From a virus: a stretch of DNA of 64,000 nt. The stretch is taken from IMG/VR virus record IMGVR_UViG_3300020456_000005, one strand, 5' to 3'. Below, in pieces: positions 1-43,444 of the stretch (position 1 is its first letter; each line of letters begins with the position of its first letter). A program made the position numbers and the translations under genes. The notes under the pieces are model-generated. The model was not told the origin of the DNA, did not search any database, and was given only the letters and a program-made list of their open reading frames with translations.

Positions 1-3000
1 CAACTCAAGACTTCTATGCACAGTCTAAGAAGCAAGATGGTGGTCTCGTATTCTACACTGGTCTAAACTCTAATGGTGACCTATACATTGGTAACCGTAA
101 GATTGATGCTATCACTGGTGAAGAAGAATTCCTAGAGTCTGCACAGTTAGTTGATTCTGACGATGATACAGAAGATATCGGTAACCTCGTTACCACGTTT
201 GATACTCCTGTAACATTCAATGAGTACATCACTGTTAATGGTGGTGATGCTCAGGATCGCATGAGCACATTCAACTCTCCTGTTACTATCAATGTTCTTG
301 GTAGAGTTAGAGAATATGCGTTTACTGTAGTTTCTAACGTATCACCTAGCGATGGTGATGATGCAACTCTTGATAAGACACAGCAATTCCTCAATCAAGA
401 TACATTTGGCGATATTGTTATTGCTAGAAACAGAGTTGCTGCATCTGTATTCCAATTTAACCCACGTGGATCAAATGGTTCAGCACAAGGTTATAAGATT
501 CAGAACCATGTAGTTGCTAATCTTGGATCAAATATTACTCCTAATCAGAGTGCTCTCTATTCAACAGGACTAGGAACAGCAATTGATGCTACCCAGAATG
601 TTCTTTATGGAAATACAGTTCCACTTTCTGGAGACATGCTCCTTAAAGGATCTGAAGTTGGTGGTTCTGGATCAATTGGTTGGATTTATGCTAACTTCTT
701 CTCTATAATTCCAGCAGCAAATATCCTTCACTTCACGATGGATGGTAGCACTGTTATCACTATCACATGGGGTAACAATCTAAACAACGAACAGGTTGGT
801 GTTACTAGTGGATCACAAATTAGAATCAGTAACTTCAGTGATTCTGGATTTAATGGTCTATGGCAGATTATTGGTAATGGATTTACACCTACTGCTAGTA
901 CTTGTCAGATTGCTCTCATTGAGAACAGATCTAATGTTGCTAATGATAATCCACGCCTATGGAGTGATGAAGTTTCACTTGGAAATGATGTAAGACTAGA
1001 GTTCTCTAATTCTTCTTGGAAGGAATTTGGAGTTCTTGGTGCTGAAACACTTAGAACTGATACTGAGAACATTGGTGACTACAAACTTGGTATTAACACA
1101 GTTGCAAGATCTGCACATGATGCATATAAGACTGCATTCACTGATGTTGCAACAGCTCCTCGTGCAAACCTTGACGTTGTTGGTAACACATTTATCAGTG
1201 GTAAGATTATCTCTGATTACTTAGATAACGCTGCATTTGCTAATAGAACTGAAACATCTACTGACTATGCATTGTTGGTTGGTGGTGATAGTGCAACACC
1301 AGCAAATGAAGCAACACTAAGAGTTGCAACTTCTAACAATGGTCGTGTTGGTATTAATGTAACCAATGCTGAACTAGACAGAGCATTAGTTGTTGACGGT
1401 GAGTCAAGATTTACTGGCGATGCTAGATTCCAACAGGATATTGAAGTTCATGGTGGTGGCGGTACTAATACTGCTGAAATCAGAACTGATATTACTTCTG
1501 GTACATTTAATTTCTTAATGAATAACACCTTTGTTGGTGTTGCAAATGCTAATGGTCTTAAGATTGCTGGTTGGGTACAAAATATTGAAATTGGTAATGA
1601 GACTGCACAAGAACAATACATTGAACTTGGCACTAAATCTCTTAATAGCAATATCTTTATTGGATCTACTCCAGACACACCTGTTGGAAATATTTCTAAG
1701 GTTGAGATTGGTGGAGCATATAACAATAATGAATCCCAATCTTACACTGAGATTAAAACCAAGTCTCTTAAAGTTAATGGTGATTTCCAGTTAGGAACTA
1801 GACGCACTATTACAGATTCGGTAAGACTATCTACCACTGCTGGTGAAGTTAGCTTCTTCTCTGACTCTGGTTCTGCATCTACTATTAACTTTGGTCTAAA
1901 TGCATCTGAAGTTAACATTGCTGGTCAGGGTGGTAAGACTACTATCAACAACCAGTTGGAAGTTATTGCATCTGCTAAGTTTAATGGTGATGTACATATG
2001 TGTGGTGGACTTGCGTCCTTCGCATTCAATGCATCTAGAGGACAGAGTGGAACAACAATTTCTGCACATGATGATGGAATTATTGTTGCAGATGTTCAGT
2101 TCAATAAGAATATTGATATCTTAAATGTCACACGTCTTACAAGTGCTGAAGATGGATACAACCAAGTTGATACTGCTGGTTCTGGAAATTGGGGTAGTAG
2201 TTCATATCAGGATGATCAAAGTATTGGACTACCAACTTTAAGTGGTAATGAATTCTATCTACCTCTTAAGAATAAACCAGATGATGCTGATGGCAATCCA
2301 TACTTTAATGAGAATGATTACATTATCGTTGATAGTCCAGTAGTTACAACCACTGGATATCCAGAATTCTTGAAAGTTCTAGAGTTAACTAGAATTAATA
2401 CCGCACCATATTATATTAAAGTTGAGCGTAAACCTTTCGGTACATTTACTGGACAAGTAGAAACACATCCAGATACAACACCAATCTATAAGGTTAATGT
2501 ACAGTTTGACTCCACATGGACTGAGCAGGCACTAGATGCTGATGGTCCTGAAGATAATGTATATCTTGCAGAGTTTGGTGGTGATTTAAATCCTAATGAT
2601 TATGTAATCGTTGATCGTGAAGATACTAATAATGATGGCACCTTTGATCAAGGTGAAATCCTTAAGGTTCTAACATCACTTAATCAACAGGTTCAGAAGT
2701 TTAGAATTTCTGACTGTGGAACCCCAGATAAAGATGTATTCATCGTTGATTCTACTACTGGTGATACTTACATCGGTGGTGAAGTAACAATTGAGAACTC
2801 AGTTAATATTAATGGTGGTTGCTCTACTACAGATAGAGGAACAATCACTGGTAATATTACACCTGCAACTGGTAGTATTCTAGTAGACACGATTACTAAT
2901 ATCAGTAGCACTGATATTGCCAAGGTTAAACTTAATGATACTGTTAAGTTTGATGGTGGTGGAGTCAATGCAGATCTATTCGGTAACACCAGAATTATTG

Positions 3001-4688
3001 AGATCGGAACTGATTTTATTAAACTAAATCAGAATATTGTTTCTACCGCAGCTCTAACAAATGTAACATTCCGTGTTACTAAGAACGAAGAGTTTATCAT
3101 TACTAATGGTAAAGAGCAGAATACTCTTTACTTTGATACATGTAGTGCTGCTCTTGAAATTGGTAATCAGATCAGAAGAATTGATATTAGCAGAGTTCTT
3201 CCTGGATCGCAATCTCCTGCAGATACTGTAAGTACCTACGATGGAAGTGAAGCAGATCAAAAGGTTTATTCTTATTGGGTTGATCCTGCAACAATTAATG
3301 CTAATGGTCCAATTACTACATTAACCGCAACTGCGAATACTGGTCCTATTTCTGGATCTGTCTATCTAAGTGTTGCTGAGTTAGGTCTTGGATCTGGTAG
3401 ATTTGCTGAGGGTGATTTAGTTCTGGTTGGTAACACATCTCAGATTAATGCTAAGGGAACAACTGGAACTGATTGGGAAATCATGGAAGTTGGGGCAGTT
3501 GATATCACCTCAAATATTTTGAGATGTATTCCTGGTCAAGAGGGAACAACTGCAAATGCACTATCAACCTACCCAGCAACTACAACTAGTGTTATTAGAA
3601 TCCTGAAGCATCCTATGGTTTCTTCAATGCTTGACATTGAAGAAAGAACTCGTGATGTTAATGGAACTAATGTTCCTTACGTTTCTGTAATTATTGATAA
3701 AGGACAAATTGTCCAAACAAAACTTGATTACACAAACTTTGTAAGAATTACCAATGCATCTGATGCAAATGGTAAGTTCTACCTTGTTAACGGAGGTTTA
3801 CTAGGAAAATATCATACACCAGTCATGGATGAAACACTCCAAGATGGTAACGTTACTCATAGAAATGGTGATTTAGTTCTTAATAAAGACTTCTCCATGT
3901 ATGGTGGCAACATCGTCATGAAGGATTCTGTTGGTAAGACAAATATCTTGAGAGTTGTTAATGATGATGGACATGCAGATCACTCTGGATCTATCTACTT
4001 TGATGCTGGTATTATTGGAAGAGGTAATATTACTCTCTATCCAGCAACTTGTCCAGAAAACGTTGTTGTAAATGCACAGTCATGTAACCCATCATTTAAG
4101 ATTGATACATTTGGTAATGGTTTAGTTGGTCAAAGTTGGGAAATTGTTGGATCTCCAGCAGAGGCTCCAGCAAAAACACCAAAACTATCTGTCCAGAATC
4201 TTGGTATCAACGGTGCTGATAGGTTCGTAATCAATCAAGATAATTCTATTGATGCATTTGGTATTAATAATTTCTACACCACTAGTGGCGGTAGACATGC
4301 CAGATATGTATCTACTGGATCTGATGCAGATGATAAGAATCTACAATCTAATGTTACTTACTTTGTTAATGTAACTAATCAAGATGAAATGATTCTATTC
4401 TTACCAGAGAATGCTCAAAGTGGAGATAGAATTGAAATCATTGAGGTTGGTGGAAATCTAACTTACGATACATCTCTAGTCATTAGAGCATTAGGATCAC
4501 AGGTTAGAGTCCAAGGTGATAGTTCAGGAACTACAATTGGATTAGGTGGATCCACTCCATATAATTCTGGTGAACTAGTTGTACAAACACCAAACGCTGC
4601 GTTTACCTTGATCTACCTAGGATCTACAGACTCACAAGGAACAATTGTTTCTTCCTCTGTAACTGGATGGTGGCTCAAGGAGGTCTGA
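1..4688 (+). CDS. Giant cyanophage virion structural / tail-fibre-like protein (5'-truncated by window)
   Basis: Frame is open from position 3 (TQDFYAQSKKQDGGLVFYTGLNSNGDLYIGNRKIDAITGEE...), so ATG 261 is internal. G/T/N/S-rich beta repeats. C-terminal gp9/gp10-like domain (YFVN..LFLP..GDRIEIIEV..FTLIY..GWWLKEV). Confidence 0.8.
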   Translation, partial: TQDFYAQSKKQDGGLVFYTGLNSNGDLYIGNRKIDAITGEEEFLESAQLVDSDDDTEDIGNLVTTFDTPVTFNEYITVNGGDAQDRMSTFNSPVTINVLGRVREYAFTVVSNVSPSDGDDATLDKTQQFLNQDTFGDIVIARNRVAASVFQFNPRGSNGSAQGYKIQNHVVANLGSNITPNQSALYSTGLGTAIDATQNVLYGNTVPLSGDMLLKGSEVGGSGSIGWIYANFFSIIPAANILHFTMDGSTVITITWGNNLNNEQVGVTSGSQIRISNFSDSGFNGLWQIIGNGFTPTASTCQIALIENRSNVANDNPRLWSDEVSLGNDVRLEFSNSSWKEFGVLGAETLRTDTENIGDYKLGINTVARSAHDAYKTAFTDVATAPRANLDVVGNTFISGKIISDYLDNAAFANRTETSTDYALLVGGDSATPANEATLRVATSNNGRVGINVTNAELDRALVVDGESRFTGDARFQQDIEVHGGGGTNTAEIRTDITSGTFNFLMNNTFVGVANANGLKIAGWVQNIEIGNETAQEQYIELGTKSLNSNIFIGSTPDTPVGNISKVEIGGAYNNNESQSYTEIKTKSLKVNGDFQLGTRRTITDSVRLSTTAGEVSFFSDSGSASTINFGLNASEVNIAGQGGKTTINNQLEVIASAKFNGDVHMCGGLASFAFNASRGQSGTTISAHDDGIIVADVQFNKNIDILNVTRLTSAEDGYNQVDTAGSGNWGSSSYQDDQSIGLPTLSGNEFYLPLKNKPDDADGNPYFNENDYIIVDSPVVTTTGYPEFLKVLELTRINTAPYYIKVERKPFGTFTGQVETHPDTTPIYKVNVQFDSTWTEQALDADGPEDNVYLAEFGGDLNPNDYVIVDREDTNNDGTFDQGEILKVLTSLNQQVQKFRISDCGTPDKDVFIVDSTTGDTYIGGEVTIENSVNINGGCSTTDRGTITGNITPATGSILVDTITNISSTDIAKVKLNDTVKFDGGGVNADLFGNTRIIEIGTDFIKLNQNIVSTAALTNVTFRVTKNEEFIITNGKEQNTLYFDTCSAALEIGNQIRRIDISRVLPGSQSPADTVSTYDGSEADQKVYSYWVDPATINANGPITTLTATANTGPISGSVYLSVAELGLGSGRFAEGDLVLVGNTSQINAKGTTGTDWEIMEVGAVDITSNILRCIPGQEGTTANALSTYPATTTSVIRILKHPMVSSMLDIEERTRDVNGTNVPYVSVIIDKGQIVQTKLDYTNFVRITNASDANGKFYLVNGGLLGKYHTPVMDETLQDGNVTHRNGDLVLNKDFSMYGGNIVMKDSVGKTNILRVVNDDGHADHSGSIYFDAGIIGRGNITLYPATCPENVVVNAQSCNPSFKIDTFGNGLVGQSWEIVGSPAEAPAKTPKLSVQNLGINGADRFVINQDNSIDAFGINNFYTTSGGRHARYVSTGSDADDKNLQSNVTYFVNVTNQDEMILFLPENAQSGDRIEIIEVGGNLTYDTSLVIRALGSQVRVQGDSSGTTIGLGGSTPYNSGELVVQTPNAAFTLIYLGSTDSQGTIVSSSVTGWWLKEV

Positions 4689-30073: not shown

Positions 30074-30469
30074 ATGGCAACGTCTAATCTCTCGTTTAGA
30101 GATGTCAATATCACCTTTAAGAAGCATCCTGTTACTGACGACGTAGTTGTTAGTAAGGATAATGCTGCTATTAAGCAGTCTATCATCAGTTTACTTCTTA
30201 CTAACAGGGGTGAACGTCTATTCAATTCGGACTTTGGTTCGGATATTAGATCATTTTTGTTTGAACCTTTAGACTTTGGTACTGCTGCTCAAATCAAGAT
30301 GGGCATTCGTAGTACTATCAAACAATACGAACCAAGAATATCAGTACAAGCCGTTGTTGTCATTCCAAACTATGACGACAACGGTTTTGATGTGGAAATG
30401 ACTTATCAAATAAGAGGAACAGATGTCCCCCCTGTACAAATAGAATTCTTCCTGTCTAGGACGAGATAA
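30074..30469 (+). CDS. gp25: Baseplate wedge subunit gp25
   Basis: AIKQSI..LLLTNRGERLFNSDFGS..LFEP..YEPRI. Confidence 0.93.
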   Translation: MATSNLSFRDVNITFKKHPVTDDVVVSKDNAAIKQSIISLLLTNRGERLFNSDFGSDIRSFLFEPLDFGTAAQIKMGIRSTIKQYEPRISVQAVVVIPNYDDNGFDVEMTYQIRGTDVPPVQIEFFLSRTR

Positions 30470-32271
30470 TGCCATATACTCAGTTAAACAATTTAGATTT
30501 CAATGAAATCAAAACTGCTCTCAAAGATTACATGAGAGCGCAAACGGATTTTACTGACTATGATTTTGAGGGGTCGGCATTAAGTCAACTTTTAGATGTA
30601 TTAGCATATAACACGTACTACACGGCGTTCAATGCTAATATGGTAGTCAATGAGATGTTCCTTGACTCCGCTACTCTTAGAGACAACGTAGTAGCGTTAG
30701 CAAAGCAATTAGGGTATACACCGAAGTCAATTACCGCACCGAAAGCGGAAGTAAGTTTTAATTTAACATTTACTAGCACTGCTCCCGCGTCTGTAACGAT
30801 AAAGGCGGGAACAGGGTTTGTAACTAATTATGACAGTAGTTTATATCGTTATATCTTAAAAAATGACGTTAAGGTAGAAGTATCTAATAAAATTGCGTCA
30901 TTTACGGATATTCCAGTCTACGAAGGTGCATCTGTTGTAACTAGAACTAGTTTTGATACTTCTCTTAAGTCACAACGCTTTAAAATTGAAAATCCTTCGG
31001 CAGATTTGAATACACTAGTAGTAAATGTGTATCAATCTGTTGGATCCTCTGTATTTCAAGAATATAAGAGAGCTGACAGTGTTCTTGATATTGGTTCTGA
31101 TGATAATGTGTATTTCATCAGTGAGATTGAAGATGAGCAGTATGAAATTTTCTTTGGAGACAATATTTTAGGTAATAGACCTGATAACGGTGAGATTGTT
31201 GAGATCTCTTATATTTCTACTAATGGACCTTCATCAAACGGTGCAAAGTCATTTACATTCAATGGTAGGATAGAAGATGAGAACAATGTTGCGATTACAG
31301 TACCATTTAATGTAAGTACGGTCACAACTGTTAGTAAATCATCTGGTGGTGCTGATATTGAGAGTATTGAGAAAATTAAATACAATGCACCTAAGTTCTA
31401 CGGATCTCAAAATCGTGCAGTAACATCTAACGACTATAGTGCAATCGTTAGGAATCTATATCCATCTATTAGTGATATCATTGTATTTGGTGGAGAGGAT
31501 CAAGTTCCACCAGAATACGGTAAGGTATTCATTTCAGTAAAACCAAATGAAGCAGCATCACTTTCTGCGTTAACAAAATCTGATTTAACTCAGCAACTAA
31601 GACAATATACAGTTGCATCAGTTAAACCTCAATTTATTGATCCATCTATTCTATATGTTGAGTTAGATAGTAAAATTTATTTTGATGGGACTAAGACAAA
31701 CAAACTTCCTACTGAAGTAGCATCCACTGCGGCCACTGGTATTGTAGAATATTTAAAAACATCAGAAACTGAAAAGTTTAATGGTAAGTTTAGATATAGT
31801 AAGTTTATTGGTGTAATTGATGGATCAGATCATTCTATCAATTCTAATAACACTACAGTGACTCTAAGGAAGGATTTCTATGCACAGATTAATGCATCTT
31901 CCTATTATGAGGTATGTTATCAGAATCCTTTCTTAAAAGATTGCGATAATCCAGTGCTTTCTTCTACTGGTATGACAGTCTTTGAGTATCCTAATTATAC
32001 CACGTATCTTGAGGATAGAGATGGCAAAATCGTCCTATATAGACTAGATTCCTTGACTGGAGAAAAAATTCTCCTTAATGATTCTATTGGTGATATTGAT
32101 TATATGCACGGCGAGGTTAAATTATATAATTTCACTATCTTAAAAGGATCGTTCTCAGACAACCGAGTTGAATTGAGAGTTAAACCTGCTAATAAGGATA
32201 TTGAAGTAAAACGTGAGGTATATCTAGATGTTGATATATCAAAAAGTACATTTGTAGCATACAAAGAGTAG
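30469..32271 (+). CDS. gp6: Baseplate wedge subunit gp6
   Basis: LDFNEIK..FTDYDFEGS..LLDVLAYNTYY..EMFLDSATLR..QNRAVTSNDY..YGKVFI. Confidence 0.95.
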   Translation: MPYTQLNNLDFNEIKTALKDYMRAQTDFTDYDFEGSALSQLLDVLAYNTYYTAFNANMVVNEMFLDSATLRDNVVALAKQLGYTPKSITAPKAEVSFNLTFTSTAPASVTIKAGTGFVTNYDSSLYRYILKNDVKVEVSNKIASFTDIPVYEGASVVTRTSFDTSLKSQRFKIENPSADLNTLVVNVYQSVGSSVFQEYKRADSVLDIGSDDNVYFISEIEDEQYEIFFGDNILGNRPDNGEIVEISYISTNGPSSNGAKSFTFNGRIEDENNVAITVPFNVSTVTTVSKSSGGADIESIEKIKYNAPKFYGSQNRAVTSNDYSAIVRNLYPSISDIIVFGGEDQVPPEYGKVFISVKPNEAASLSALTKSDLTQQLRQYTVASVKPQFIDPSILYVELDSKIYFDGTKTNKLPTEVASTAATGIVEYLKTSETEKFNGKFRYSKFIGVIDGSDHSINSNNTTVTLRKDFYAQINASSYYEVCYQNPFLKDCDNPVLSSTGMTVFEYPNYTTYLEDRDGKIVLYRLDSLTGEKILLNDSIGDIDYMHGEVKLYNFTILKGSFSDNRVELRVKPANKDIEVKREVYLDVDISKSTFVAYKE

Positions 32272-32274
32272 TAG

Positions 32275-35200
32275 ATGCTTAAGACTGCTAATAAAATCTC
32301 ATTTCTAGTTGAGTCTCAGTTACCAGACTTCATTAATGAAGAGTACGAACTTTTTAGTAAGTTTGTAAGGAAGTACTATGAGCAATTAGAGTTACAGGGT
32401 CAACCTGTTGATATTATCACGAATCTTGAAACATATCGTGATATAGATTTTTATGAGAAAAATGTATTAAAGCAGTCAACTACTATTACTGGCAACCTAT
32501 CCAGTAATGCAGATGTTATTAACGTAGTAGACGCTGCATCATTTCCAAAAAGTGGATATATCAAAATTGATGATGAAATTTGTTTCTATGGTAATAGAAC
32601 AGAGACTTCATTCTTAGAAGTAAGTCGTGGTGTTAGTGGAAACACAACATTAGGAGATCTTTACAAATCTAGTACATTTGTAACTACTCAGTCATCTACT
32701 CATGTTAATGGGTCAACTGTACAGAATATCAGTAATTTGTTTCTGTATGCATTAGTCAAAAGTTTTGAAGATCAATACCTTGCAGATTTTCCAGAAGCGT
32801 ATTTAAAAGAAGGTGTAGACAAGAGAACTCTTATTAAGAATATCTCTTCTTTTTACAGATCAAAGGGAACTGACAATTCAATCAAATTTCTATTCAAATG
32901 TTTGGTTGAAGAGGATCCAAATCCAGAAATTGCATATCCAAGAGATTTTACATTAAAATCATCTGAATCTAATTGGATTCAATCATATGCACTAAGAGTA
33001 AAGATTATTAGTGGCGAACCAAATAATTTAATTGGTAAAAGAATTGTTCAAAACGTAGAAGGTAACTATGCTTCTGCTGTTGTAGATAACGTTAAGTATA
33101 GCGGTACATACGATGGAGAGGCATTGTATGACATTATCTTAAATGAGCAAAGTGTTAATGGAACATTTGAGAAATCGTTAAAAACTGTATTGACTAGTCC
33201 AATTGTTGGATCTTTGACAGTTGGTGATAGAGTAAATGTATTCTCTACTATGGGGTGGGGAAAGAAAGGATCATTCTCTATAGGATTAGAGACATTTACG
33301 TTTGAAGAGAAAAATGTAAATCAATTTATAATTAAGACAAGATCTGGTACGGGATCTCATCAATCAGGAGAATCTGTTACTTATAACCTAGAAGTAACTT
33401 CTGATGATGTCAAATTACAAGTATTTGGAATTTTATATGGATTACAGAATGTTATTGAATCTCCATATTCAAATGTTGGTGAAAGTGTAGAAATTTCTGA
33501 ATCTGGATTCCTAACAGATGATATCAGAATTAACGACACTCAAAATAATCTAAGATGGGTTGATAGCACTGGCGTTGCAGCAATTGCAGACCTTAATCCT
33601 AATGTTTCTGCCATCTTTGAAGATGGTGAAGGATATTACATTGCTTCATCAGGATTTCCATCACATGCTATTGGAACTCTTCCATCTGATGCTCAAGATC
33701 AGAAACTATTAAAGATTATTAGAAAGCATCCTATACAGACTACAGAAGTCTATAAGACATTATATCGTGATATTGGTGTTGCTGTCAATGGTATTCCATT
33801 CTTAAGTTATAAAGACGAAGAAGTAGTTAATAGTGGTGCATTACAATCTGTAGCGATTACATCTAGAGGTGCTGGTTATAATAAACCTCCATTTGTGTTA
33901 ATTGATGGTGTTTCAGATTTAGCAAGAACTAAACTAGCAGGTCAAGTAGTTGAATCAGTTGTTATTGATACTCCTGGTAATTACACTGCAGTTCCTACTA
34001 TAGAAATATTGTCTGGTAGGAATGCTCAGGCAAGAGCAGTTGTTACTAATGGTGAAATTACTAGTATTGTAGTTGAGAATGAAGGTGAGTACTATTCCTC
34101 AGCACCAGAAGTAAGAATTACTGATTCTGCAGGTAGAGGTAGATTTGCAACATATCGTGCAGTTGTTACTACTGCAGGAACTATTGACAGATTTGAAAAA
34201 ATCAATGGTGGTAGTCTATATTCTCAAGAAAATGTACAGGTAGACATTATTGCGGTAGGATCTGGTGCTACTGGAACCGCATCTATTAGACAATGGAGAA
34301 AAGATAAGTTTTATAAGAATGAATCTTCTCTTGATTCTGAAAATGGTTATTTCTTCCCAAATTACGTAACTAACCGTGGTTCTGGGTATGCATACTATGC
34401 TGCACCATCAACTATTAGATCTGGTGATACTGGAGTAAATCATTCTCCTATTATTGGTTTTGCATATGATGGTAATCCAATCTATGGTCCTTTTGGACAT
34501 CAAAACCCACTAGATTCTCAAAGTCTCATTGTGAGAATGACTAGTAGTTATAGTAAAAACAATGTAAGATCTGGTGGTCCATTAGTTAGTCAATACCCTA
34601 TCGGAACATTTATTGATGACTATACTTTTGTTGCTGAGTATGGAAGTCTGGATCAAAACAATGGACGCTATTGCGTAACACCAGATTATCCAGAAGGAAC
34701 TTATGCATATTTTGTAACTTTAGATAATCAGAATGATCCTGTATTCCCATATATTTTAGGTGATAACTATTATTCTCTACCAGTTGATTCTAATTACAAT
34801 TCAGAACTTTCTCAGGATGATATTCCTAAAACTGCAAGAAGACTTAGAACATCTGGTATTACTAGAAATGGTCAGTCTGCATTAGCAAAAATTGCAGATG
34901 TAAAACGAGGTAGTATTAGTTCTGTTTCTATTACTGGTAGCACTAGTAATTTCTCTGTTGGATCTGAGTTAATTATTGATGATTCGGATACTGATGGTTT
35001 TGGAGCAAGTGCAGAAGTCTCTTCAGTAAAGGGAAGACAAGTATCTAGTATTGAATCGCAAGATATTAAATCTCTGTTTATTGAGTTAAAAACAACTGCT
35101 TATTTGTTTGATGGTGATATAATCACTCAATCTAACACTGGAGCTACTGGTCAGATTGTAGGAGATGTATTTTCATCTACCAAATTTGCTTTACGTAATG

Positions 35201-38200
35201 TAATTGGTTCTTTTAATAGTACAGATGTACTATCTTCTAGTACAAAGGTTATTAGTCTATTCCTGAATCAAAACTCTTCATATACTAAAGGGGCTACATT
35301 AGAATTTACAGATGGTCTTGGTGCTCCAGTAGCATCTGGCGAAGTACTAGAAACCACAACAAAACAGAACACTGTAAAGATCAAAGTACTTAATGGTTCT
35401 TTTGTTCCATCAGATACATTCTTCTTGAGAAGTTCTGATTTAATCAATACTACTGGATCTAAAATATTAACAACTATAGAACTGAGTGAAGGACTAGTTA
35501 TTTTTGATTTAAAAGATAATGTTGCTATTTTAAAGACAGCAGATGCTCATGGCGTTGCTGAGACTGATATTATTACTATTGATATTAATCCAGATGATGC
35601 AACAACTACTACAACATATTATGTAAGATCCCGAGTATACCAAGAAGCAGTCCTGAAAACGCCTGGTATCACTAGAGTTTTGACGGACGATGGAATTGGA
35701 AAAGTTAGTATATTAAATGGTGGCGAAGATTATACTGCTAACACATATAATGATATTGCGTTATCTGGAGGTTCTGGATCTGGAGCAAAAGCAAATGTTG
35801 TTGTCTCAGCAGAAGGTAGCGTAACATCTATTACATTAACTGATAAAGGTACTGGATATCAATTATTTGATATTTTAACTATCGGTGATACAGCTCTTAG
35901 TAAGACAGATACTACTACACCTACCGTACAGATCAATATTGATCATATTGGTCTTGCTTTATCTGAGACAGTTGTAAATCTTGACAGTAATGTAGGTATT
36001 AATCCTGGTGATAAATTACGTATTGGAAATGAAATTATTACTGTTCTTTCTAGAGTAGTTAATTCAACTACATCAATTAATGTATCTAGAGGAACTGTTC
36101 CATTAAATCATTTTAATGGTGCTTCGGTATCATCTTACAATGCTGGTTATGTTATTTCTGTGGGTACTACAGTAGGAGATGCTAATATCCTTTCTTATAA
36201 TCCTAATACACAAAAAATTGTATTTACATATGATTATGGACAAACAACTAGTACAATTAATCCAATTGATTTAAGTACAGTATTTTTTGATCAAGAACAG
36301 AGACTTGCAGAGGTTGTTTCTGTAGAAGACCCTATTCGCTGTTTTGAATTTTCTTTAGATAATAACTCTTTTACAAGAAATCAATTAATTGATATTAAAG
36401 AAGGATATCGCTACATCTTTGATAGTTCCCATTCATCAATGAGTGATGTTGAGTTTGCTCTTTCACCTAGTAAGAATTTAAATCTAAAAACATTAGAGGC
36501 AATTAGAGGAAATGATACCCTTGATGTTAAATTTGGATTTGGACCAAGAATTGCTACTAACAATTATAACACAAAAGTAGAATCTCCATTTAAAAAGTAT
36601 TTTTACTTTGATAGGTTAAACAATGTTAATTCTGAAGAGGCATTTATCAATGTAATTAATGATCCTTTACAGGGAGATAAGACTGCACTTTATATTACAA
36701 GTGACAGTATTGTTTATGAAACTGGTATACCTGCTACCAATGATGGAAGTGGCACAATCAATTATATTTCACGATCATTATTCTCAGTTGGAGAAATTAA
36801 TGACATTAGGGTAATCAATATTGGTAATGATTATAAGAAAGTTCCTTCTGTATTAGGAATCATACCAACAAATAAAGCTACAGCAACATCCACTATTTCT
36901 AATGGTGAAGTTGTTGGAGTATCTGTAAAAACTAATGGAAGTGGATATTCCAAACCTATTGTTTATGTTGATGGAGATGCGAAATTAAAGGCGATTATAG
37001 ATCAAGGTAAAATCACAGGTATTCAAATTATCAGTTCTGGTTCTGGATATACTACTGCTCCTGAAGTTAAGATTGCAGAATCTGATGTTCAGTGTCTTAT
37101 TAATAGTGATGGCATTGGAGTTCCTAGAAATGTTAATGTCTTTAATCCAGGCGGATCTTTCCATGGAGATGATACTTTATCATCTACATTTAGATCTAAC
37201 TATATTCTATCACTATCTAATTTTGATCCCGATTCTTTTGCGATTGGAGAGACTATCGTTCAAAGGATTAATGGTGTAGAAGTAGCAAGAGCTAGAATAA
37301 CATTTTTTAGATCTGGTAGATTAAGTGTTGATAGAGTATCTGGAGTTTTTAGGAAGAATAAAGAAATTCAAGGTCTTGCTAGAAATAAAACTGCAATTTT
37401 AAAAAATATTAGTTATACTGAGTTTTCTCCTCAAATTACTACTTACTACGATAATCAAGGATATTTCCAATCTGACAGTGGAAAAGTTAGTGATCAAAAC
37501 CAAAGACTCACAGATTCATTCTATTATCAAGATTATTCATATCTGGTTAAATCAAAGACTTCTATTGATACTTGGAGATCATTAATCAAGTCAACAACAC
37601 ATCCTGCTGGATTTAAAGTTTTTGGTGAGGTATTACTTGAAACTTCATCAAATGCTGCGATGAATAGTAATAGTACATTTACTTCTACAAGTATTGTACA
37701 AGTTTGGAATCCAGATGTAAATAAAGTCTCTGTAATCAGCACTAAGAAAAATATTACTCAAAGTATTGTTCTCATGGATACTTTGAAAGTTGAAAGAGGC
37801 GTTGGTTCTGTATCCAAAGAAACATTTAATACTTCTGAAATTATTTCTGGTGAAGTTTATCTCACAGAATCTTTTGATGGTAATTTTGGAGATAAAGGAA
37901 ATCTACAAGGAAAAACGGTTTTCAATATTGTTGATGTAAATGGTAATAGCATCATACCTTATAATGAGCAGGCATTAACAATTACTCTTGATGGTATATT
38001 ACAAGAACCTGGTATTGCATACACCGTAAATAACGATAAGATTACTTTTGCTGACCCACCTATCGGACCAACTACTAAAGATGGTCAATCTGTTCCTGGT
38101 GTTTTATTCTATGGAAGAAGATTCCAATTTAAGTCAGACACTCTAAATCAGAAATATCTTAAAAAGATTAAAAATATTTTCCAGCGTTCTGGTACATGGA

Positions 38201-41200
38201 TAGACGCTGCAAATCAAATTAATCAAAATAGAAGGTTTATACAATCTGAAACTCTAGGTTATATTAAATCAAGATATACATCAATTCCATGGACTAATTT
38301 AAGTGAAAAGTGTTATCGTGACATTGGTCTCATATTAGACGCATTAGAACATGACTTAAGATTTGGTGGCAATCAGAAAACTTTATTTGCCGTTGAAAAA
38401 TATTTCAATGCTGGAGTTCTTGATTATATTTCTGGAGAACTAGAGGCAACTATTGATGCATTTGATTATGCAGTACGTTTATGTAAACTAGCAGCTAGAA
38501 ATTGGGATTACTCAGATCGTCAAGTATCTTGGACTCCAGGTACTAATAAAGTTACGTTATCTAATACTGACAATGTGGCAATTGGTATGAAGGTAAGTGC
38601 TGGAAGAGCATTCCCTGCAGGAACTATCATTACTGACATCATTGATAAGAGAACTATTCAGGTAAGTAATGAATCTGTAGACATAACACCAGATCCATCT
38701 GGTAATGCAGATATGTCGTTTATTTGGAGTGGATTAAATGTTGGTACTTACTTTGATGCATCAACATTAATTCATAAAAATAAATCAAGTATGATTACAT
38801 CTACAATTGATGCAATCAATACAAAGTATCTTGCTCTTGCTGCTACTAACTATGATACAAAGTGTGCTAGAGATCTTGGGTTATTAGTTGATGCTGTAGT
38901 TTATAGTTTGAAGTACGGCGGCAATAGAAAAATTGTAGAATTTGCTGAAAGTTATTTTATTGATGGAGATCTTAATTTCATTAAGAATGAACTTAATGAA
39001 ACAGTCTATGCACATAAGGTATTGCGTGACCTAATGATTGCTGCAATGAGAAATCAGGGTGATGTAACAGATGATAGTATTCGTATTGATTCATCATCAC
39101 CAGCATGTGCTGAGGTTGCTAGTTCCATTACAACTTATATTGATATTATTGAATCTATTTTAGAAGGTGGTCCTGATAGAGTAGATACTGTTGAACAAAA
39201 TGCAAACTCTACAGGATATTGGACTACGTTTATTTCGTATTCAAATTATAATATTCTTCCAGATCCTTTACTACTAACTGAATTAAAAGAATGTGAAGAA
39301 GTAGCTTCTGCATTAGATTCACTATTTGAAAATGTAAGGCAAACATTAACTACTGGTCCAGAAACTGCGTCTCTATCATATCCAGACTATATTAATGGAG
39401 AAAATACAATATTTGAATTGTATTATGAAGATGGTACACCTGTTGACACTGAAGCAAACGAAAATCTGTTTATTGCACTAAGTGGTGTATTGCAACATGA
39501 TCCTGCGTACACTATTGATAGAACATCTGTACCAAACAAGGTTGTGTTTGATACTCCTCCTATTTGGGGACAAGGAGAGAATACGAAAACTGTTCAGGAA
39601 CCTCTAGCAGTTGAAAAATTCTTTGCACATGGAGTAGGTAACTATCTCAGATGTGAAATTGAAAAGTCTGGTATATTAGATGGTTCTGGGGGACCATTCC
39701 TAATTTTAAATTCTAGTAATAAAAAAGTTCAAACTGTTGATGATCCTAGGTTTGCTTTTGTATTCATAGATGGTATTCTTCAGCGTGATGGTGTTTCTTA
39801 TACAATCACAGGACCTGCAATTAGATTTACTAGAAAAATCTTTAGAGAAAACAATATTGAAATTATACTATTATATGGTAGAGATATTGACCAGACTGTA
39901 ACTCTATTTGATTTCCAGAGAAATACTTATTATAATGAAATTAAATTAACTTGTGATGCAGGATCACCAAATAATTTTATTGATTGGGTTTCTTGGTTCA
40001 ATACTTCATATGATAAATTCCAAGTTGCTTATCAAAAGGTTGGAAATGTTAAGAAGTTTATTGGTAATCTAAAATCCTATACTACAACTGATCAAACCTT
40101 AGTTATTACATTAGCTGGAAATAATCCTGATGTAGATGCTAGTAATATTTTCTTTGCAGGAGATTCTAATTTTTCGGATGAGTATGAGTTATCTGGAACT
40201 ACGAATACTGTAGAAGTTGTTAGAGATTCTGATAACGACTATAGAATGCAAAGAAACTCTGGTAATTGGTTATATGGAACTCCACGTGCAGATGAGTCTT
40301 TCTATGAAAGAAAACGTCTCCTTGCTAATTTAAATGCAAAAGATGTTATTAGAATTGATGGTGAGAAAGAGTTTAGAACTATTAACGAGTTACCAAGATA
40401 CACAAATCCTAAAAATTATAATGCTGGAGAGGATGTATCAAATACTTTCTTTGGTTCTGTAACTACCACTAATTACAATGGTGATGTAAGTGGTGTAGGT
40501 CTTAGTGTTACCTGTGAAATTGAAAATGGTAGCGTTTCTGCATTATTGTGGAATAAAAAGGATTTACAACTGTTATATGATGAAGGAATTATACAACCAA
40601 CTACGGCATATGGTTATGACTCTCCTCCTATTTTACATTTCATTCCTGTAAATCAAGAGGGTGGAGGAGCAAGAGCGGAAGTAGTTGTATCTAATGGTCA
40701 AATTATTGATATTGTACTAACTAAAAAAGGATCTGGATATACTGAACCACCAAGAGTAGTTACTGCAAGGTCTTACGATATAATTAAAGGTACTGGTAGA
40801 AAAATTGATACATTCCATACTCTTGGAATTGGAACTCAAATTGGTCAGAGTTCTCCTGTTGCTGTAGCAACATTTATTGATAAACTCAAAGGAGTTGATT
40901 TACCAGTTGTTACTATTGATCCTTCCGTAACAATTCCATCTGGATATGATGTAACGCTAATAATTCAAAAGAGTATTGATACTGCTCCTCTGTTCAATGT
41001 CTCTCGTGAATATAGATTCTTCAATCCATTTGCAGGATCTTCTTCTATTGCGGGACCTACCACACAGGTAGATGCGGACATTATGCTTATTATTGAACCT
41101 AAATTAGTATCAGATACTATTGTAGTTTCACTTGAAATTGATATAACTGAGTATCTTGAGGTTGGATTCTCTATGTGGTCTCCAGATCTTGAGAACTTAA

Positions 41201-41628
41201 CGTTCTTCAATAATATTAATCATTGGGAGAATAGTATATACATGGATCTTGGAGATATTGTTGCTCCAAGTGGTGATCCAGTGTCGGAAGTTCAACTTGC
41301 TGAACTAGAACCATACGAAATTACTTCTGACGGTTCTTCTTCTTCCGCGTATCCATTTAACCTAGGATACTCCTCAATTAACTATTATATGTCTCAACTA
41401 GATACTTCAGATCTACCTAATATAGGCAATCCTTCGTATCTTGCTACTGGTGAGGTAGTCTATGCAAATACAGCAAGATTCCCGTCATCAGGAACCATTT
41501 TGATTGGTGGTGAAAAGATTTCCTACACCTCTAAGATGGCGGATCGTTTTCTTAATTGCACAAGAGGCGCGGACGGGTCACCCGTTTCATCGCATACAGT
41601 AGGAGACTACTTAAGAAACGCCCTATAA
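32275..41628 (+). CDS. gp7: Giant baseplate wedge initiator gp7 (3117 aa) with inserted domains
   Basis: Between gp6 and gp8. ISFLVESQLPDFI..FVRKYYE, LIKNISSFYRSKGT and DSFYYQDYSYLVKS..HPAGFKVFG. Contains YHYH-like and phycobiliprotein-like inserts. Confidence 0.85.
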   Translation: MLKTANKISFLVESQLPDFINEEYELFSKFVRKYYEQLELQGQPVDIITNLETYRDIDFYEKNVLKQSTTITGNLSSNADVINVVDAASFPKSGYIKIDDEICFYGNRTETSFLEVSRGVSGNTTLGDLYKSSTFVTTQSSTHVNGSTVQNISNLFLYALVKSFEDQYLADFPEAYLKEGVDKRTLIKNISSFYRSKGTDNSIKFLFKCLVEEDPNPEIAYPRDFTLKSSESNWIQSYALRVKIISGEPNNLIGKRIVQNVEGNYASAVVDNVKYSGTYDGEALYDIILNEQSVNGTFEKSLKTVLTSPIVGSLTVGDRVNVFSTMGWGKKGSFSIGLETFTFEEKNVNQFIIKTRSGTGSHQSGESVTYNLEVTSDDVKLQVFGILYGLQNVIESPYSNVGESVEISESGFLTDDIRINDTQNNLRWVDSTGVAAIADLNPNVSAIFEDGEGYYIASSGFPSHAIGTLPSDAQDQKLLKIIRKHPIQTTEVYKTLYRDIGVAVNGIPFLSYKDEEVVNSGALQSVAITSRGAGYNKPPFVLIDGVSDLARTKLAGQVVESVVIDTPGNYTAVPTIEILSGRNAQARAVVTNGEITSIVVENEGEYYSSAPEVRITDSAGRGRFATYRAVVTTAGTIDRFEKINGGSLYSQENVQVDIIAVGSGATGTASIRQWRKDKFYKNESSLDSENGYFFPNYVTNRGSGYAYYAAPSTIRSGDTGVNHSPIIGFAYDGNPIYGPFGHQNPLDSQSLIVRMTSSYSKNNVRSGGPLVSQYPIGTFIDDYTFVAEYGSLDQNNGRYCVTPDYPEGTYAYFVTLDNQNDPVFPYILGDNYYSLPVDSNYNSELSQDDIPKTARRLRTSGITRNGQSALAKIADVKRGSISSVSITGSTSNFSVGSELIIDDSDTDGFGASAEVSSVKGRQVSSIESQDIKSLFIELKTTAYLFDGDIITQSNTGATGQIVGDVFSSTKFALRNVIGSFNSTDVLSSSTKVISLFLNQNSSYTKGATLEFTDGLGAPVASGEVLETTTKQNTVKIKVLNGSFVPSDTFFLRSSDLINTTGSKILTTIELSEGLVIFDLKDNVAILKTADAHGVAETDIITIDINPDDATTTTTYYVRSRVYQEAVLKTPGITRVLTDDGIGKVSILNGGEDYTANTYNDIALSGGSGSGAKANVVVSAEGSVTSITLTDKGTGYQLFDILTIGDTALSKTDTTTPTVQINIDHIGLALSETVVNLDSNVGINPGDKLRIGNEIITVLSRVVNSTTSINVSRGTVPLNHFNGASVSSYNAGYVISVGTTVGDANILSYNPNTQKIVFTYDYGQTTSTINPIDLSTVFFDQEQRLAEVVSVEDPIRCFEFSLDNNSFTRNQLIDIKEGYRYIFDSSHSSMSDVEFALSPSKNLNLKTLEAIRGNDTLDVKFGFGPRIATNNYNTKVESPFKKYFYFDRLNNVNSEEAFINVINDPLQGDKTALYITSDSIVYETGIPATNDGSGTINYISRSLFSVGEINDIRVINIGNDYKKVPSVLGIIPTNKATATSTISNGEVVGVSVKTNGSGYSKPIVYVDGDAKLKAIIDQGKITGIQIISSGSGYTTAPEVKIAESDVQCLINSDGIGVPRNVNVFNPGGSFHGDDTLSSTFRSNYILSLSNFDPDSFAIGETIVQRINGVEVARARITFFRSGRLSVDRVSGVFRKNKEIQGLARNKTAILKNISYTEFSPQITTYYDNQGYFQSDSGKVSDQNQRLTDSFYYQDYSYLVKSKTSIDTWRSLIKSTTHPAGFKVFGEVLLETSSNAAMNSNSTFTSTSIVQVWNPDVNKVSVISTKKNITQSIVLMDTLKVERGVGSVSKETFNTSEIISGEVYLTESFDGNFGDKGNLQGKTVFNIVDVNGNSIIPYNEQALTITLDGILQEPGIAYTVNNDKITFADPPIGPTTKDGQSVPGVLFYGRRFQFKSDTLNQKYLKKIKNIFQRSGTWIDAANQINQNRRFIQSETLGYIKSRYTSIPWTNLSEKCYRDIGLILDALEHDLRFGGNQKTLFAVEKYFNAGVLDYISGELEATIDAFDYAVRLCKLAARNWDYSDRQVSWTPGTNKVTLSNTDNVAIGMKVSAGRAFPAGTIITDIIDKRTIQVSNESVDITPDPSGNADMSFIWSGLNVGTYFDASTLIHKNKSSMITSTIDAINTKYLALAATNYDTKCARDLGLLVDAVVYSLKYGGNRKIVEFAESYFIDGDLNFIKNELNETVYAHKVLRDLMIAAMRNQGDVTDDSIRIDSSSPACAEVASSITTYIDIIESILEGGPDRVDTVEQNANSTGYWTTFISYSNYNILPDPLLLTELKECEEVASALDSLFENVRQTLTTGPETASLSYPDYINGENTIFELYYEDGTPVDTEANENLFIALSGVLQHDPAYTIDRTSVPNKVVFDTPPIWGQGENTKTVQEPLAVEKFFAHGVGNYLRCEIEKSGILDGSGGPFLILNSSNKKVQTVDDPRFAFVFIDGILQRDGVSYTITGPAIRFTRKIFRENNIEIILLYGRDIDQTVTLFDFQRNTYYNEIKLTCDAGSPNNFIDWVSWFNTSYDKFQVAYQKVGNVKKFIGNLKSYTTTDQTLVITLAGNNPDVDASNIFFAGDSNFSDEYELSGTTNTVEVVRDSDNDYRMQRNSGNWLYGTPRADESFYERKRLLANLNAKDVIRIDGEKEFRTINELPRYTNPKNYNAGEDVSNTFFGSVTTTNYNGDVSGVGLSVTCEIENGSVSALLWNKKDLQLLYDEGIIQPTTAYGYDSPPILHFIPVNQEGGGARAEVVVSNGQIIDIVLTKKGSGYTEPPRVVTARSYDIIKGTGRKIDTFHTLGIGTQIGQSSPVAVATFIDKLKGVDLPVVTIDPSVTIPSGYDVTLIIQKSIDTAPLFNVSREYRFFNPFAGSSSIAGPTTQVDADIMLIIEPKLVSDTIVVSLEIDITEYLEVGFSMWSPDLENLTFFNNINHWENSIYMDLGDIVAPSGDPVSEVQLAELEPYEITSDGSSSSAYPFNLGYSSINYYMSQLDTSDLPNIGNPSYLATGEVVYANTARFPSSGTILIGGEKISYTSKMADRFLNCTRGADGSPVSSHTVGDYLRNAL

Positions 41629-41677: not shown

Positions 41678-43444
41678 ATGGCAGCTATTATTTCAGAAAA
41701 ATTTAGAATCTTCAATGCGAAGCAATTTCTAGAATCTTTAACAGAAGGTACGAACGATGCAGATGCAGCGCGTACCCGAATGTATTTCTTCGTTGGAAGA
41801 TCCTCTAAGTGGGATGCTTACCTAGAAATCTTTAATGTAAGTGGAACATTCCAAGTTGGAGAAACTGTAAGCGGTGGTGGATGGAGTGGCGTAGTTGCTG
41901 CTGTATATTCTAACAGTGTACTGCTTAACACTATCTTACCAACACCAACTACTACTCCAGCGTTTGGAACAACGGTTACTGGCGGAACTAGTGGTGCTAC
42001 TGCTAAGAGTGGTGTATACAGATATGGTACGGAAGATGTACCTCCAATGCCACTAGACAACTTCTCTGAGAAGAGATCTGTATATGAAGAACTGATTGCT
42101 GCCAAGAGAGTCACTGGTCCATTTGCACGCCTTGTAGTTCCCCGTTACAACTGGAACCTTGCGCTGAATCCCAAGTTTGATATGTACCGTCCAAACTACT
42201 CCCCAACTCCAGGTGGTGGCGGAGCTATTGGTGTTGAAACTGCACTAGGATCTAGTTCACTATCTAATTCCAAGTTTTATGTAATGAACGCTACTTACGA
42301 AGTGTTCAAATGCCTATACAACGGCGAATCACCAGCAAATCCAACTGGTCAAAACGCTACTTACGAACCAAAGTCACAACCTTCTGCTGGACAAGGAACA
42401 TTTGATGCTGCTACTGGGTTGTATACCGAACCATCAGGAACTGCTGGTTATATTTGGAAGCACATGTTTACACTTCCTACAGCAGACGTTCTTTCATTCC
42501 TTTCTTCTGACTTTATGCCTATTGCCTCTTCAGGTGATGCATCAAGAACTGCAGTTGAAGCACTTGCTGTTGCTGGTTCCATTAATGTATCAGTAATTCG
42601 TGATGCTGGTGTTGCACTTCCTGCATCATCTACTTTGTATACTGCTGTTCAAGGAGATGGTAACGGAGCAATTGTTAAACTAGAGACTGATGGTTCTGGA
42701 ACTATTACAGGCACCGAAATGTATGCTGCTGGTAGTGGTTATACTTATGCTAACGTTATTCTTCAAACTGGAACAGTATTTACTGACACTGGTCTAACTG
42801 CAGCTGCTGGTGCATTTGCAGGAACTGCATCTATTGAGGCAGTTATTTCTCCAGAAGGTGGTCATGGTTCTCATGCAGAAGATGAGTTGTTCTCTAAGCG
42901 TGTGATGACCAATATTCGTCTTACCTATGATGAAGGTCAAGGAGACTTCCCAGTAGATAACGATTTCCGTCGCATTGGTATCATTCAAGACCCATATGAG
43001 TATGGTACTACTACCTTTGCTTCCGCAAGTACTCTACGTGGTACAAATGTACTAAAAATTAATGGTGCTACTGCTGACTATGTTTCAGATGAGGTAATTA
43101 CTCAAACTGTAACTGGTGGAACTGCGAAAGGAACCGTAGTATCATGGGATGCTACTAATGGTATTCTAAAGTATTATCAATCTGCTTCTACTGACACCGA
43201 TGGCGGTAAAGTTTTAGCGTTTGAATCTAATGCTTCAAATGCTGTTGTTGGTTCTACTTCCACTGCTTCTGGAACCGTAGATACTTCCCAAAATGCAGTT
43301 CTTTCCGATATCTCCTTTACAGGTGGCATGGCAGCGCCAGAATTAGAACCAAACTCTGGAGAAATCGTATACATAGAGAATAGAAGAGAGATTACTAGAG
43401 CTCCTGATCAAATTGAGGACATTAAACTAGTAATTGAATTCTGA
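41678..43444 (+). CDS. gp8: Baseplate wedge subunit gp8
   Basis: MAAIISEKFRIFNA..FYVMN..YEVFKCLYN..GYIWKHMFT..YIENRR.ITRA.DQIEDIKLVIEF. Confidence 0.92.
   Translation: MAAIISEKFRIFNAKQFLESLTEGTNDADAARTRMYFFVGRSSKWDAYLEIFNVSGTFQVGETVSGGGWSGVVAAVYSNSVLLNTILPTPTTTPAFGTTVTGGTSGATAKSGVYRYGTEDVPPMPLDNFSEKRSVYEELIAAKRVTGPFARLVVPRYNWNLALNPKFDMYRPNYSPTPGGGGAIGVETALGSSSLSNSKFYVMNATYEVFKCLYNGESPANPTGQNATYEPKSQPSAGQGTFDAATGLYTEPSGTAGYIWKHMFTLPTADVLSFLSSDFMPIASSGDASRTAVEALAVAGSINVSVIRDAGVALPASSTLYTAVQGDGNGAIVKLETDGSGTITGTEMYAAGSGYTYANVILQTGTVFTDTGLTAAAGAFAGTASIEAVISPEGGHGSHAEDELFSKRVMTNIRLTYDEGQGDFPVDNDFRRIGIIQDPYEYGTTTFASASTLRGTNVLKINGATADYVSDEVITQTVTGGTAKGTVVSWDATNGILKYYQSASTDTDGGKVLAFESNASNAVVGSTSTASGTVDTSQNAVLSDISFTGGMAAPELEPNSGEIVYIENRREITRAPDQIEDIKLVIEF

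Follow-up and report, generated by a model that had tools for sequence, protein, structure and literature searches.

Phycobiliproteins are the antenna proteins of cyanobacteria, red algae and cryptophytes, and a few cellular paralogues of them exist in addition. In their CxRD motif the cysteine, the arginine and the aspartate serve the attachment of the chromophore and the contact with it, and the attachment sites of the Cys84 and Cys153 types lie far apart in the protein. The antenna component ApcE attaches its own bilin without a lyase. CxRD is also the attachment motif of the globins BBAG-1 and BBAG-3, which need no lyase to bind their bilins (Rockwell et al. 2023, PMC10151467). Here we describe two phycobiliprotein-like units in a virion protein encoded by a T4-like cyanobacterial virus, the IMG/VR virus record IMGVR_UViG_3300020456_000005, of which a stretch of 64,000 nucleotides was analysed as a whole (the window). 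Both units are hosted by a gp7-like giant baseplate wedge protein of 3117 amino acids, which corresponds to the plus-strand open reading frame (ORF) 32275..41628 of the ORF list. As judged by computation, it is very likely that residues about 1955-2360 of this protein make up two domains, one inserted in the other, which belong to the phycobiliprotein branch of the globin fold, and that these domains are true distant homologues of the host light-harvesting proteins. We found no published description of a phycobiliprotein-like domain in a cyanophage baseplate or in gp7.

The initial annotation of this DNA had recognised two copies of a helical unit between positions 38197 and 39345, each with one aspartate motif and two cysteine motifs. 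Translation of this region and a coordinate check agree on all six motifs, which are D 38203 (DAANQINQN), C 38311 (CYRDIGLIL) and C 39292 (CEEVASALD) in copy 1, and D 38755 (DASTLIHKN), C 38863 (CARDLGLLV) and C 39106 (CAEVASSIT) in copy 2. The spacing from D to the first C is 36 amino acids in both copies, and the phycocyanin motifs that the annotation had quoted for comparison, GDCSALMSEIAGYFD among them, proved to be correct when set against CpcA and CpcB of cyanobacterial genomes. That the two are copies of one unit is evident from BLASTP of their N-terminal parts, which gave 37% identity over 104 amino acids (E 1e-22), and a hidden Markov model (HMM) built from the two copies found exactly those two across the six frames of the window.

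The nested arrangement was likewise confirmed, by comparing the window with orthologues that carry a single unit. In an alignment of gp7 orthologues consisting of 16 segments from IMG/VR contigs, seven of the nine lineages that contain one uninterrupted unit of about 200 amino acids (L018-L026) are represented; in the lineage of the window, a beta-rich segment and a second complete unit lie between the second-last and the last helix of the first unit, and in L012 more than one unit has been inserted. The N-terminal part of the outer unit (copy 1), up to its second-last helix, occupies 38134..38526 and includes D 38203 and KCYRD (Cys 38311); it scores 152 bits with the unit HMM, and amino acids 1956-2021 match positions 12-84 of the Pfam profile PF00502. 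It is followed by the beta-rich insertion domain at 38509..38724, which is absent from the single-unit orthologues, and by the complete inner unit (copy 2) at 38734..39168, with D 38755, KCARD (Cys 38863) and ACAEV (Cys 39106) and a score of 119 bits with the unit HMM. The last helix of the outer unit then follows at 39289..39354, with Cys 39292 in ECEEVAS; this cysteine (Cys405 of the 447-residue segment used for modelling) is invariant in 16/16 orthologues. All four parts are on the plus strand. The AlphaFold (AF2) model of the 447-residue segment (md478fcc87d0d; predicted local distance difference test, pLDDT, 66) shows the same succession, with helices at 23-142, strands at 144-215, helices at 223-363 and a final helix at 406-425. 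A structural aligner matched the inner copy (model 219..362) and the outer copy (model 36..424) each to a whole phycobiliprotein beta chain, the outer copy aligning to beta-chain residues 33-172. As to the N-terminal X-Y helices, most structural alignments of the inner unit begin at beta residue 21-34, residues 1-17 of the single-unit model are coil, and the outer unit has one extra N-terminal helix. This extra helix in the model corresponds to a segment immediately before the outer unit (window 38134-38200, amino acids about 1955-1975) with the motif KKIKNIFQ, which is invariant in 16/16 gp7 orthologues, including those that have no CxRD.

Sequence comparisons point from several sides to the phycobiliprotein family. 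With PF00502, whose curated gathering cut-off is 22.2 bits, the full 3117-residue gp7 scored 15.7 bits, below the cut-off, and the 447-residue segment alone scored 22.4 bits (E 1.3e-4), marginally above it. All 16 orthologue segments matched PF00502 (best E 5.5e-8), and no other Pfam family was matched by more than two of them. Higher scores were obtained with other unit-bearing proteins, namely 38.6 bits with the metagenomic giant P0125 and 47.6 bits with a 3333-residue paralogous fibre protein of G001, a 192.8-kb IMG/VR genome that is the closest complete relative (about 89% identity in the gp7 segment). The profile of the 16 orthologues gave 55 matches among all PDB sequences, about 48 of which are phycobiliprotein alpha chains; the best one (6y3d, E 3.3e-4) aligned with CpcA from residue 33 to residue 106. 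In profile-profile comparisons run with hhalign, for which CpcA and CpcB sequences of cyanobacterial genomes had been aligned, the probability was 92.7-95.6% (E 1e-8 to 4e-7) over 84-115 columns, as compared with 0.1-0.7% for reversed-template controls. Since the match of gp7-type units to CpcB alone was weak (5.8% probability), no sequence-level affinity to beta over alpha subunits is claimed. Nothing significant was found when the region was run as a single sequence against PDB sequences with phmmer (phycocyanin alpha appeared at E 0.17), and a search of the ESM Atlas with copy 2 gave no usable match.

Structure comparisons were based on AF2 models made without templates. Copy 2 alone (model m2ea665b92965) was predicted with a pLDDT of 84 and a predicted template modelling (pTM) score of 0.83, and its top Foldseek matches were phycobiliprotein beta chains only (phycoerythrin beta; E 1.5e-4, template modelling score 0.62-0.66). 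In a structural search of 48,161 representative chains, ranks 1-7 were all phycobiliprotein-family chains (Z 12.7-14.7), followed at lower ranks by sensor globins, RsbR and photoglobins (Z 9.5-11.9) and by haemoglobins (Z 6-8). With VIA, Z was about 15-16 (14.7-16 for the inner unit) at a root-mean-square deviation of 2.1-2.3 Å over 128-136 residues; every one of the 50 listed entries was a phycobiliprotein or a close relative. On these predicted structures the units belong to the phycobiliprotein variant of the globin fold. A point to be set against this assignment is that AF2 models may lean on phycobiliproteins from training. Taken together, the Pfam, profile-profile and fold comparisons lend good support to the captured phycobiliprotein fold with bilin-site residues that the initial annotation had proposed.

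The best structural match of the phage units is to the phycobiliprotein beta subunits (CpeB, CpcB and the cryptophyte beta chains; PF00502), from beta residue about 32 to the C-terminus. Both have CxRD at the start of a long helix, and in gp7-type units a low-confidence alignment places an Asp and a Cys where beta subunits have beta-Asp39 and beta-Cys153. Beta subunits are free-standing proteins of 170 amino acids, whereas the phage units are domains nested in a 3117-residue virion protein, and not subunits of 160-180 amino acids encoded on their own in an antenna operon. The phage units also differ from beta subunits in having no clear X-Y N-terminal hairpin for alpha-beta pairing, a shorter loop before the Cys, and invariant residues of their own (Asp2027, GGN and Tyr2043); the identity is about 17%, and a bilin on the phage units is only inferred. 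At the sequence level the best match is CpcA, the alpha subunit of C-phycocyanin (hhalign 94.8%, E 5e-8, 98-115 columns), which has in common with the phage units the consensus K-C-x-R-D-[IV]-G-Y and a trailing GG. Alpha subunits are without the Cys153 site, in contrast to gp7-type units, which keep the second Cys; in other respects they differ from the phage units in the way that beta subunits do. The PB domain of ApcE resembles the phage units in being a phycobiliprotein fold within a large multi-domain protein and in being interrupted by an inserted loop, and it was also matched structurally (Z 13.0-13.3; 4xxi, 7eyd, 7sc7, 9wg7). ApcE, however, is a cytoplasmic antenna component with one such domain, whereas the phage domains occur in extracellular virion proteins and number from 2 to more than 30, and the insertion lies before the last helix in the phage unit and between early helices in ApcE. 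BBAG-1 and BBAG-3 (PMC10151467), which we liken to the phage units by description only, are distant phycobiliprotein paralogues outside the antenna that have CxRD and assemble without a lyase. They are small cellular proteins whose genes are clustered with those for heme oxygenase and ferredoxin-dependent bilin reductase, whereas G001 has neither gene and the neighbours of the window gene are baseplate genes.

The two units of the window are members of a large family. An HMMER scan of 1.84 billion representative proteins yielded 867 proteins at E < 1e-3, many of them 3,000-6,400 amino acids long and with up to 30 matched stretches. The best 150 of these 867 proteins contain about 1,480 units (1,483 were aligned) with a period of about 150 amino acids and with up to 34 copies per protein. 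Among 50,697 phage records, unit matches were obtained in 284, and 284/284 are cyanophages; homologues of gp6, by comparison, were found in 2,367 records, which come from T4-like phages with many different hosts and of which at least about 1,900 are not named as cyanophages. The units are a family of about 150-residue modules found in T4-like cyanophages and in no other sequenced phages, where nested or tandem arrays of them build giant baseplate and fibre proteins. In the giant protein of G001, units 2-5 (L157 7917-9491, minus strand) have C-x-D-D in place of C-x-R-D and a PTGN loop that is like the PGGN loop of beta subunits. The ORF bearing these units has the strongest PF00502 score seen (the 47.6 bits given above), its best stretch being unit 4, and since units 2-5 appear without a C-terminal helix of their own in the linear sequence, they may be nested.

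The putative ligand site is highly conserved. KCYRD and KCARD of the window align to KC[AS]RD of CpcA, i.e. to Cys82/84, Arg86 and Asp87, and across the 1,483 aligned units the Cys is conserved in 96%, the Arg in 96% and the Asp in 99%. Three further features are specific to the family and are lacking in phycobiliproteins, namely Asp2027 (98%), GGN and Tyr2043 (97%). All 1433 units that contain the Cys also have the Asp (1433/1433), with Arg in 97.5% and Tyr2043 in 98%, whereas in the 50 units without the Cys the Asp is found in 35/50 (70%), Arg in 54% and Tyr2043 in 68%; Asp2027 and GGN do not change between the two groups. The Cys is mostly replaced by Phe or Tyr. The units are mutually related, and Fisher p-values for such comparisons overstate their independence. 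As read from these alignments, the joint loss of Cys, Arg and Asp has the pattern of a single ligand site that can be dispensed with, and not that of scattered residues with a structural role. Two more residues, the Asp of D-A-x-x-x-I-x-x-N and the Cys that precedes the last helix (x-C-x-x-V-x-S), are invariant in gp7-type units (24/24).

Regarding the equivalence of individual residues, the annotation's proposal that the first Cys corresponds to Cys84 has support at the sequence level. Its other two assignments, D to beta-Asp39 and the second Cys to beta-Cys153, are backed by a low-confidence alignment and by structural offsets: greedy hhalign to CpcB places gp7-type residues on beta-Asp39, beta-Cys82 and beta-Cys153, and the structural ranges agree with it, as model 221-362 against beta 34-172 puts Cys343 at residue 153. 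The alternative offered in the same annotation, a structural disulfide between the two Cys, is disfavoured. Exactly one Cys is present in 77% of the units, and among tandem-type units only about 5% have the second, gp7-type Cys; several gp7 orthologues have lost the first Cys, whereas the second is invariant; and the two sites are by homology far apart. With distant sites, one dispensable Cys and most family members having a single Cys, an intradomain disulfide is unlikely.

By analogy with the described proteins we regard bilin binding by the units as plausible, and give it an even chance. The modules would then still bind a linear tetrapyrrole, with the Cys of CxRD forming the thioether, either autocatalytically, as in ApcE and BBAG-1/3, or by means of host lyases. 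The second Cys of gp7-type units, which resembles beta-Cys153, would be loaded by the T-type lyase CpeT, the sole lyase type that these phages carry. The bilin would be drawn from the pool of the infected cell during late gene expression, and the virion would consequently bear bilins in its baseplate and fibres. There they would most likely serve to gate adsorption in response to light; alternatively, they might act purely as a stabilising cofactor.

A link to CpeT had been suggested in the initial annotation, and the support for it that we obtained is circumstantial. The lyase gene cpeT is found in more than 60% of T4-like cyanophages, and the lyase genes of clusters A and B are all of the T type (PMC10665884); it is the T-type lyase that acts at the Cys153 position (PMC10452541). 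The two cpeT paralogues of G001, which share 33% identity, are located immediately upstream of the gene for a 2OG-Fe(II) oxygenase and of the 3333-residue fibre gene with its five units. In S-PM2 (NC_006820 163,952-177,267) the order is CpeT, two small ORFs, 2OG-Fe(II) oxygenase, a 3779-residue "short tail fiber protein" with units, and gp12, and in Syn1, ACG-2014e/i and S-RIM32 cpeT is located 1-3 kb upstream of the unit-bearing giant. When the CpeT proteins of G001 were compared with the window by tblastn, no match was found. The first ORF of the window (3..4688, plus strand, open at its 5' end) is the C-terminal part of the homologue of the G001 fibre protein, a second giant of the "short tail fibre" type: it matches positions 2403-3279 of PHROG 4527 and is 68% identical to residues 2394-3331 of the 3333-residue ORF of G001. 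In relatives, it is the N-terminal part of this protein that bears further units and that lies downstream of cpeT. By synteny, the fibre units and cpeT are therefore expected immediately upstream of the window's start.

The occurrence of units and cpeT was compared in two sets of cyanophage genomes, the first consisting of 18 genomes chosen before the outcome was seen, and the second of 10 genomes, five of which were picked by means of cpeT matches and five by means of unit matches. In the first set, units are present in 13 of the 18 genomes and cpeT in the same 13, with divergent cpeT genes in two of them (P-SSM7 and S-ShM2), and P-SSM2, S-SM2, S-SSM7, S-CRM01 and S-TIM5 have neither (Fisher test on these 18 genomes, raw p 1.2e-4). 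Both are present in 10/10 genomes of the second set, so that 23 of the 28 genomes have both, 5 have neither and 0 are discordant. This co-occurrence is suggestive. As strong statistical evidence it was set aside, since only 2-3 independent events are found on the gp6 tree.

Two further observations can be made at these fibre loci. The succession of cpeT, small ORFs, 2OG-Fe(II) oxygenase, unit-bearing giant fibre and gp12-like gene is conserved between G001 (12107-15615 of L157, G001:93001-112000, minus strand) and S-PM2, and the oxygenase adjoining the fibre gene might modify the fibre protein. Within the coding sequence of the 3779-residue short tail fibre of S-PM2 (NC_006820 168,556-173,383; L198), RefSeq has 16 tRNA features under one locus tag, which are probably misplaced annotation.

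Bilins on the virion would also bear on light-dependent adsorption. P-HM1 and P-HM2 do not adsorb in the dark, whereas P-SSM2 and the podovirus P-SSP7 do (Liu et al., PMC6628666), and the adsorption of P-HM2 and S-PM2 is described as dependent on light and independent of host photosynthesis (PMC6628666). We found 6 unit matches in P-HM2, 12 in S-PM2 and none in P-SSM2 or P-SSP7; P-HM1 has both units and cpeT. The virion might accordingly have a bilin photoreceptor of its own: the modules would be chromophorylated in the infected cell, CpeT would act on virion proteins instead of, or besides, the host antenna, and light would shift the conformation of the baseplate or the fibres and so gate adsorption. 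If true, this would account for S-PM2 and P-HM2 adsorbing only in light, independently of host photosynthesis. We consider such a photoreceptor rather unlikely, and hold the gating of adsorption by light through unit bilins to be no less doubtful. The agreement between units and light-dependent adsorption is anecdotal, though it makes a sharp prediction.

A number of observations weigh against bilin-bearing virions or against the links on which this reading leans. In several gp7 orthologues (L014/15/17, L021 and L023-25) the CxRD triad of one unit or of both is gone, the forms left being Tyr-x-Lys-Asp, Trp-x-Asn-Asp and Phe-x-Arg-Asn, and in one inner copy the triad has disappeared entirely; gp7 thus works without that site. 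The family's own invariants, Asp2027, GGN and Tyr2043, could signal a different chemistry. The hhalign alignment that places gp7-type residues on the beta-subunit positions has the low probability of 5.8%. As regards the supply of bilin, G001 was found to have no heme oxygenase or bilin reductase (no match to PF01126 or PF05996). P-SSM2, which carries ho1, pebS and pcyA, gave no unit matches. In the gp6 tree P-SSM2, S-SM2 and S-SSM7 form one clade and S-CRM01 is an outlier, so that the co-occurrence of units and cpeT needs only 2-3 independent events. The comparison of units with light-dependent adsorption comprises only four phages. Finally, pigmented or fluorescent cyanophage particles have to our knowledge not been reported, nor has an experiment that shows a bilin on any virion protein.

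The main rival to bilin binding is that the fold, captured from phycobiliproteins or co-ancestral with them, is a purely structural, exapted module, i.e. a rigid helical building block in which CxRD and Tyr2043 form a buried polar network without a chromophore. We regard this as a real possibility, somewhat less probable than bilin binding. The presence of the modules in virion structural proteins, with as many as 34 copies in one protein, fits a building block, as do the tolerated loss of the triad in gp7 orthologues and the family's own invariant residues that are unrelated to bilin binding; moreover, we found no published report of coloured virions. Conversely, it is hard to explain without a ligand that CxRD is kept to 96-100% across units sharing only about 30% identity, and that Cys, Arg and Asp disappear jointly, with bulky aromatics as the main replacements, where the structural Asp2027 and GGN stay. 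The perfect co-occurrence with cpeT and the adjacency of cpeT to the fibre giant would have no role in a structural module beyond shared ancestry.

It is less probable still, and in our view improbable, that the Cys/Arg/Asp/Tyr site binds a partner other than a bilin, which might be a host metabolite, a metal or a host surface ligand, or that it forms an intermolecular disulfide or cross-link locking fibre subunits. A single conserved Cys per extracellular domain could do redox or cross-linking chemistry, the additional invariant Asp2027, Asn2033 and Tyr2043 could make a novel site, and the 2OG-Fe(II) oxygenase gene conserved beside the fibre giant hints at post-translational chemistry. Yet the position of the site is that of the phycobiliprotein Cys84 pocket, a bilin lyase homologue is the one linked enzyme whose specificity is known, Arg-Asp beside Cys is not a usual metal site, and an intradomain disulfide is impossible for the 77% of units with one Cys. 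That the phycobiliprotein likeness itself arose by chance, or because an unrelated helical bundle converged on a short motif, is extremely improbable: non-significant single-sequence searches, the sub-threshold Pfam score of full-length gp7, the weak hhalign match to beta chains alone and the fact that high Z-scores are common among helical folds would suit this explanation, but the profile alignments extend to both sides of the motif where reversed controls fail, all 16 orthologues match PF00502 and nothing else consistently, related unit-bearing proteins score far higher with it, and the first seven ranks of an unbiased structural search are phycobiliprotein-family chains, above other globins.

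The assignment of the host protein to T4-type gp7 is based on its position between gp6 and gp8 and on its similarity to baseplate wedge families. It is flanked on the plus strand by a gp6-like baseplate wedge gene at 30469..32271 (Pfam Gp6-like_1st, E 3.7e-19; PHROG 219, E 2.8e-204) and by a gp8-like one at 41678..43444 (Pfam Phage-Gp8, E 1e-7; PHROG 438, E 5.6e-163), which is the same gene position as in T4. Its matches in PHROG are family 4406, a virion structural protein, and family 2885, a baseplate wedge subunit (E 3.8e-196), and with the Pfam family Baseplate_wedge (PF23786) it scores 24.3 bits, below the cut-off of 27. T4 gp7 has a length of about 1030 amino acids; the window protein differs from it in its 3117 amino acids and in its many inserted domains, which include the two phycobiliprotein-like units. 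One among the several insertions that make it three times the size of T4 gp7 is a YHYH domain (PF14240, E 8e-31) at window 34279-34725 (amino acids 669-817). Right after gp8, window 43470-51587 encodes an ORF of 2705 amino acids whose PHROG matches are all to families with no known function (phrog_358, E 0) and which is without a phycobiliprotein-like unit. In the fibre region, the ORFs at 53927-56278 (783 amino acids) and 56278-56940 (220 amino acids) have no PHROG match at E 1e-5.

In the units described here, a phycobiliprotein fold with an intact attachment motif has become a mass-produced module of virus particles whose hosts make bilins. Two questions can thereby be put to the test: why most T4-like cyanophages carry a bilin lyase gene, and one of the T type only, and what light sensor is behind the light-dependent adsorption of cyanomyoviruses. 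If no bilin is attached, the modules would still clearly exemplify how a fold from host photosynthesis is exapted to serve as a structural repeat, and their near-invariant Cys-Arg-Asp site would need a new explanation. If bilins are attached, these virions would be the first phage particles known to bear pigment and possibly to sense light, and the modules would be a new source of small self-contained biliprotein tags.

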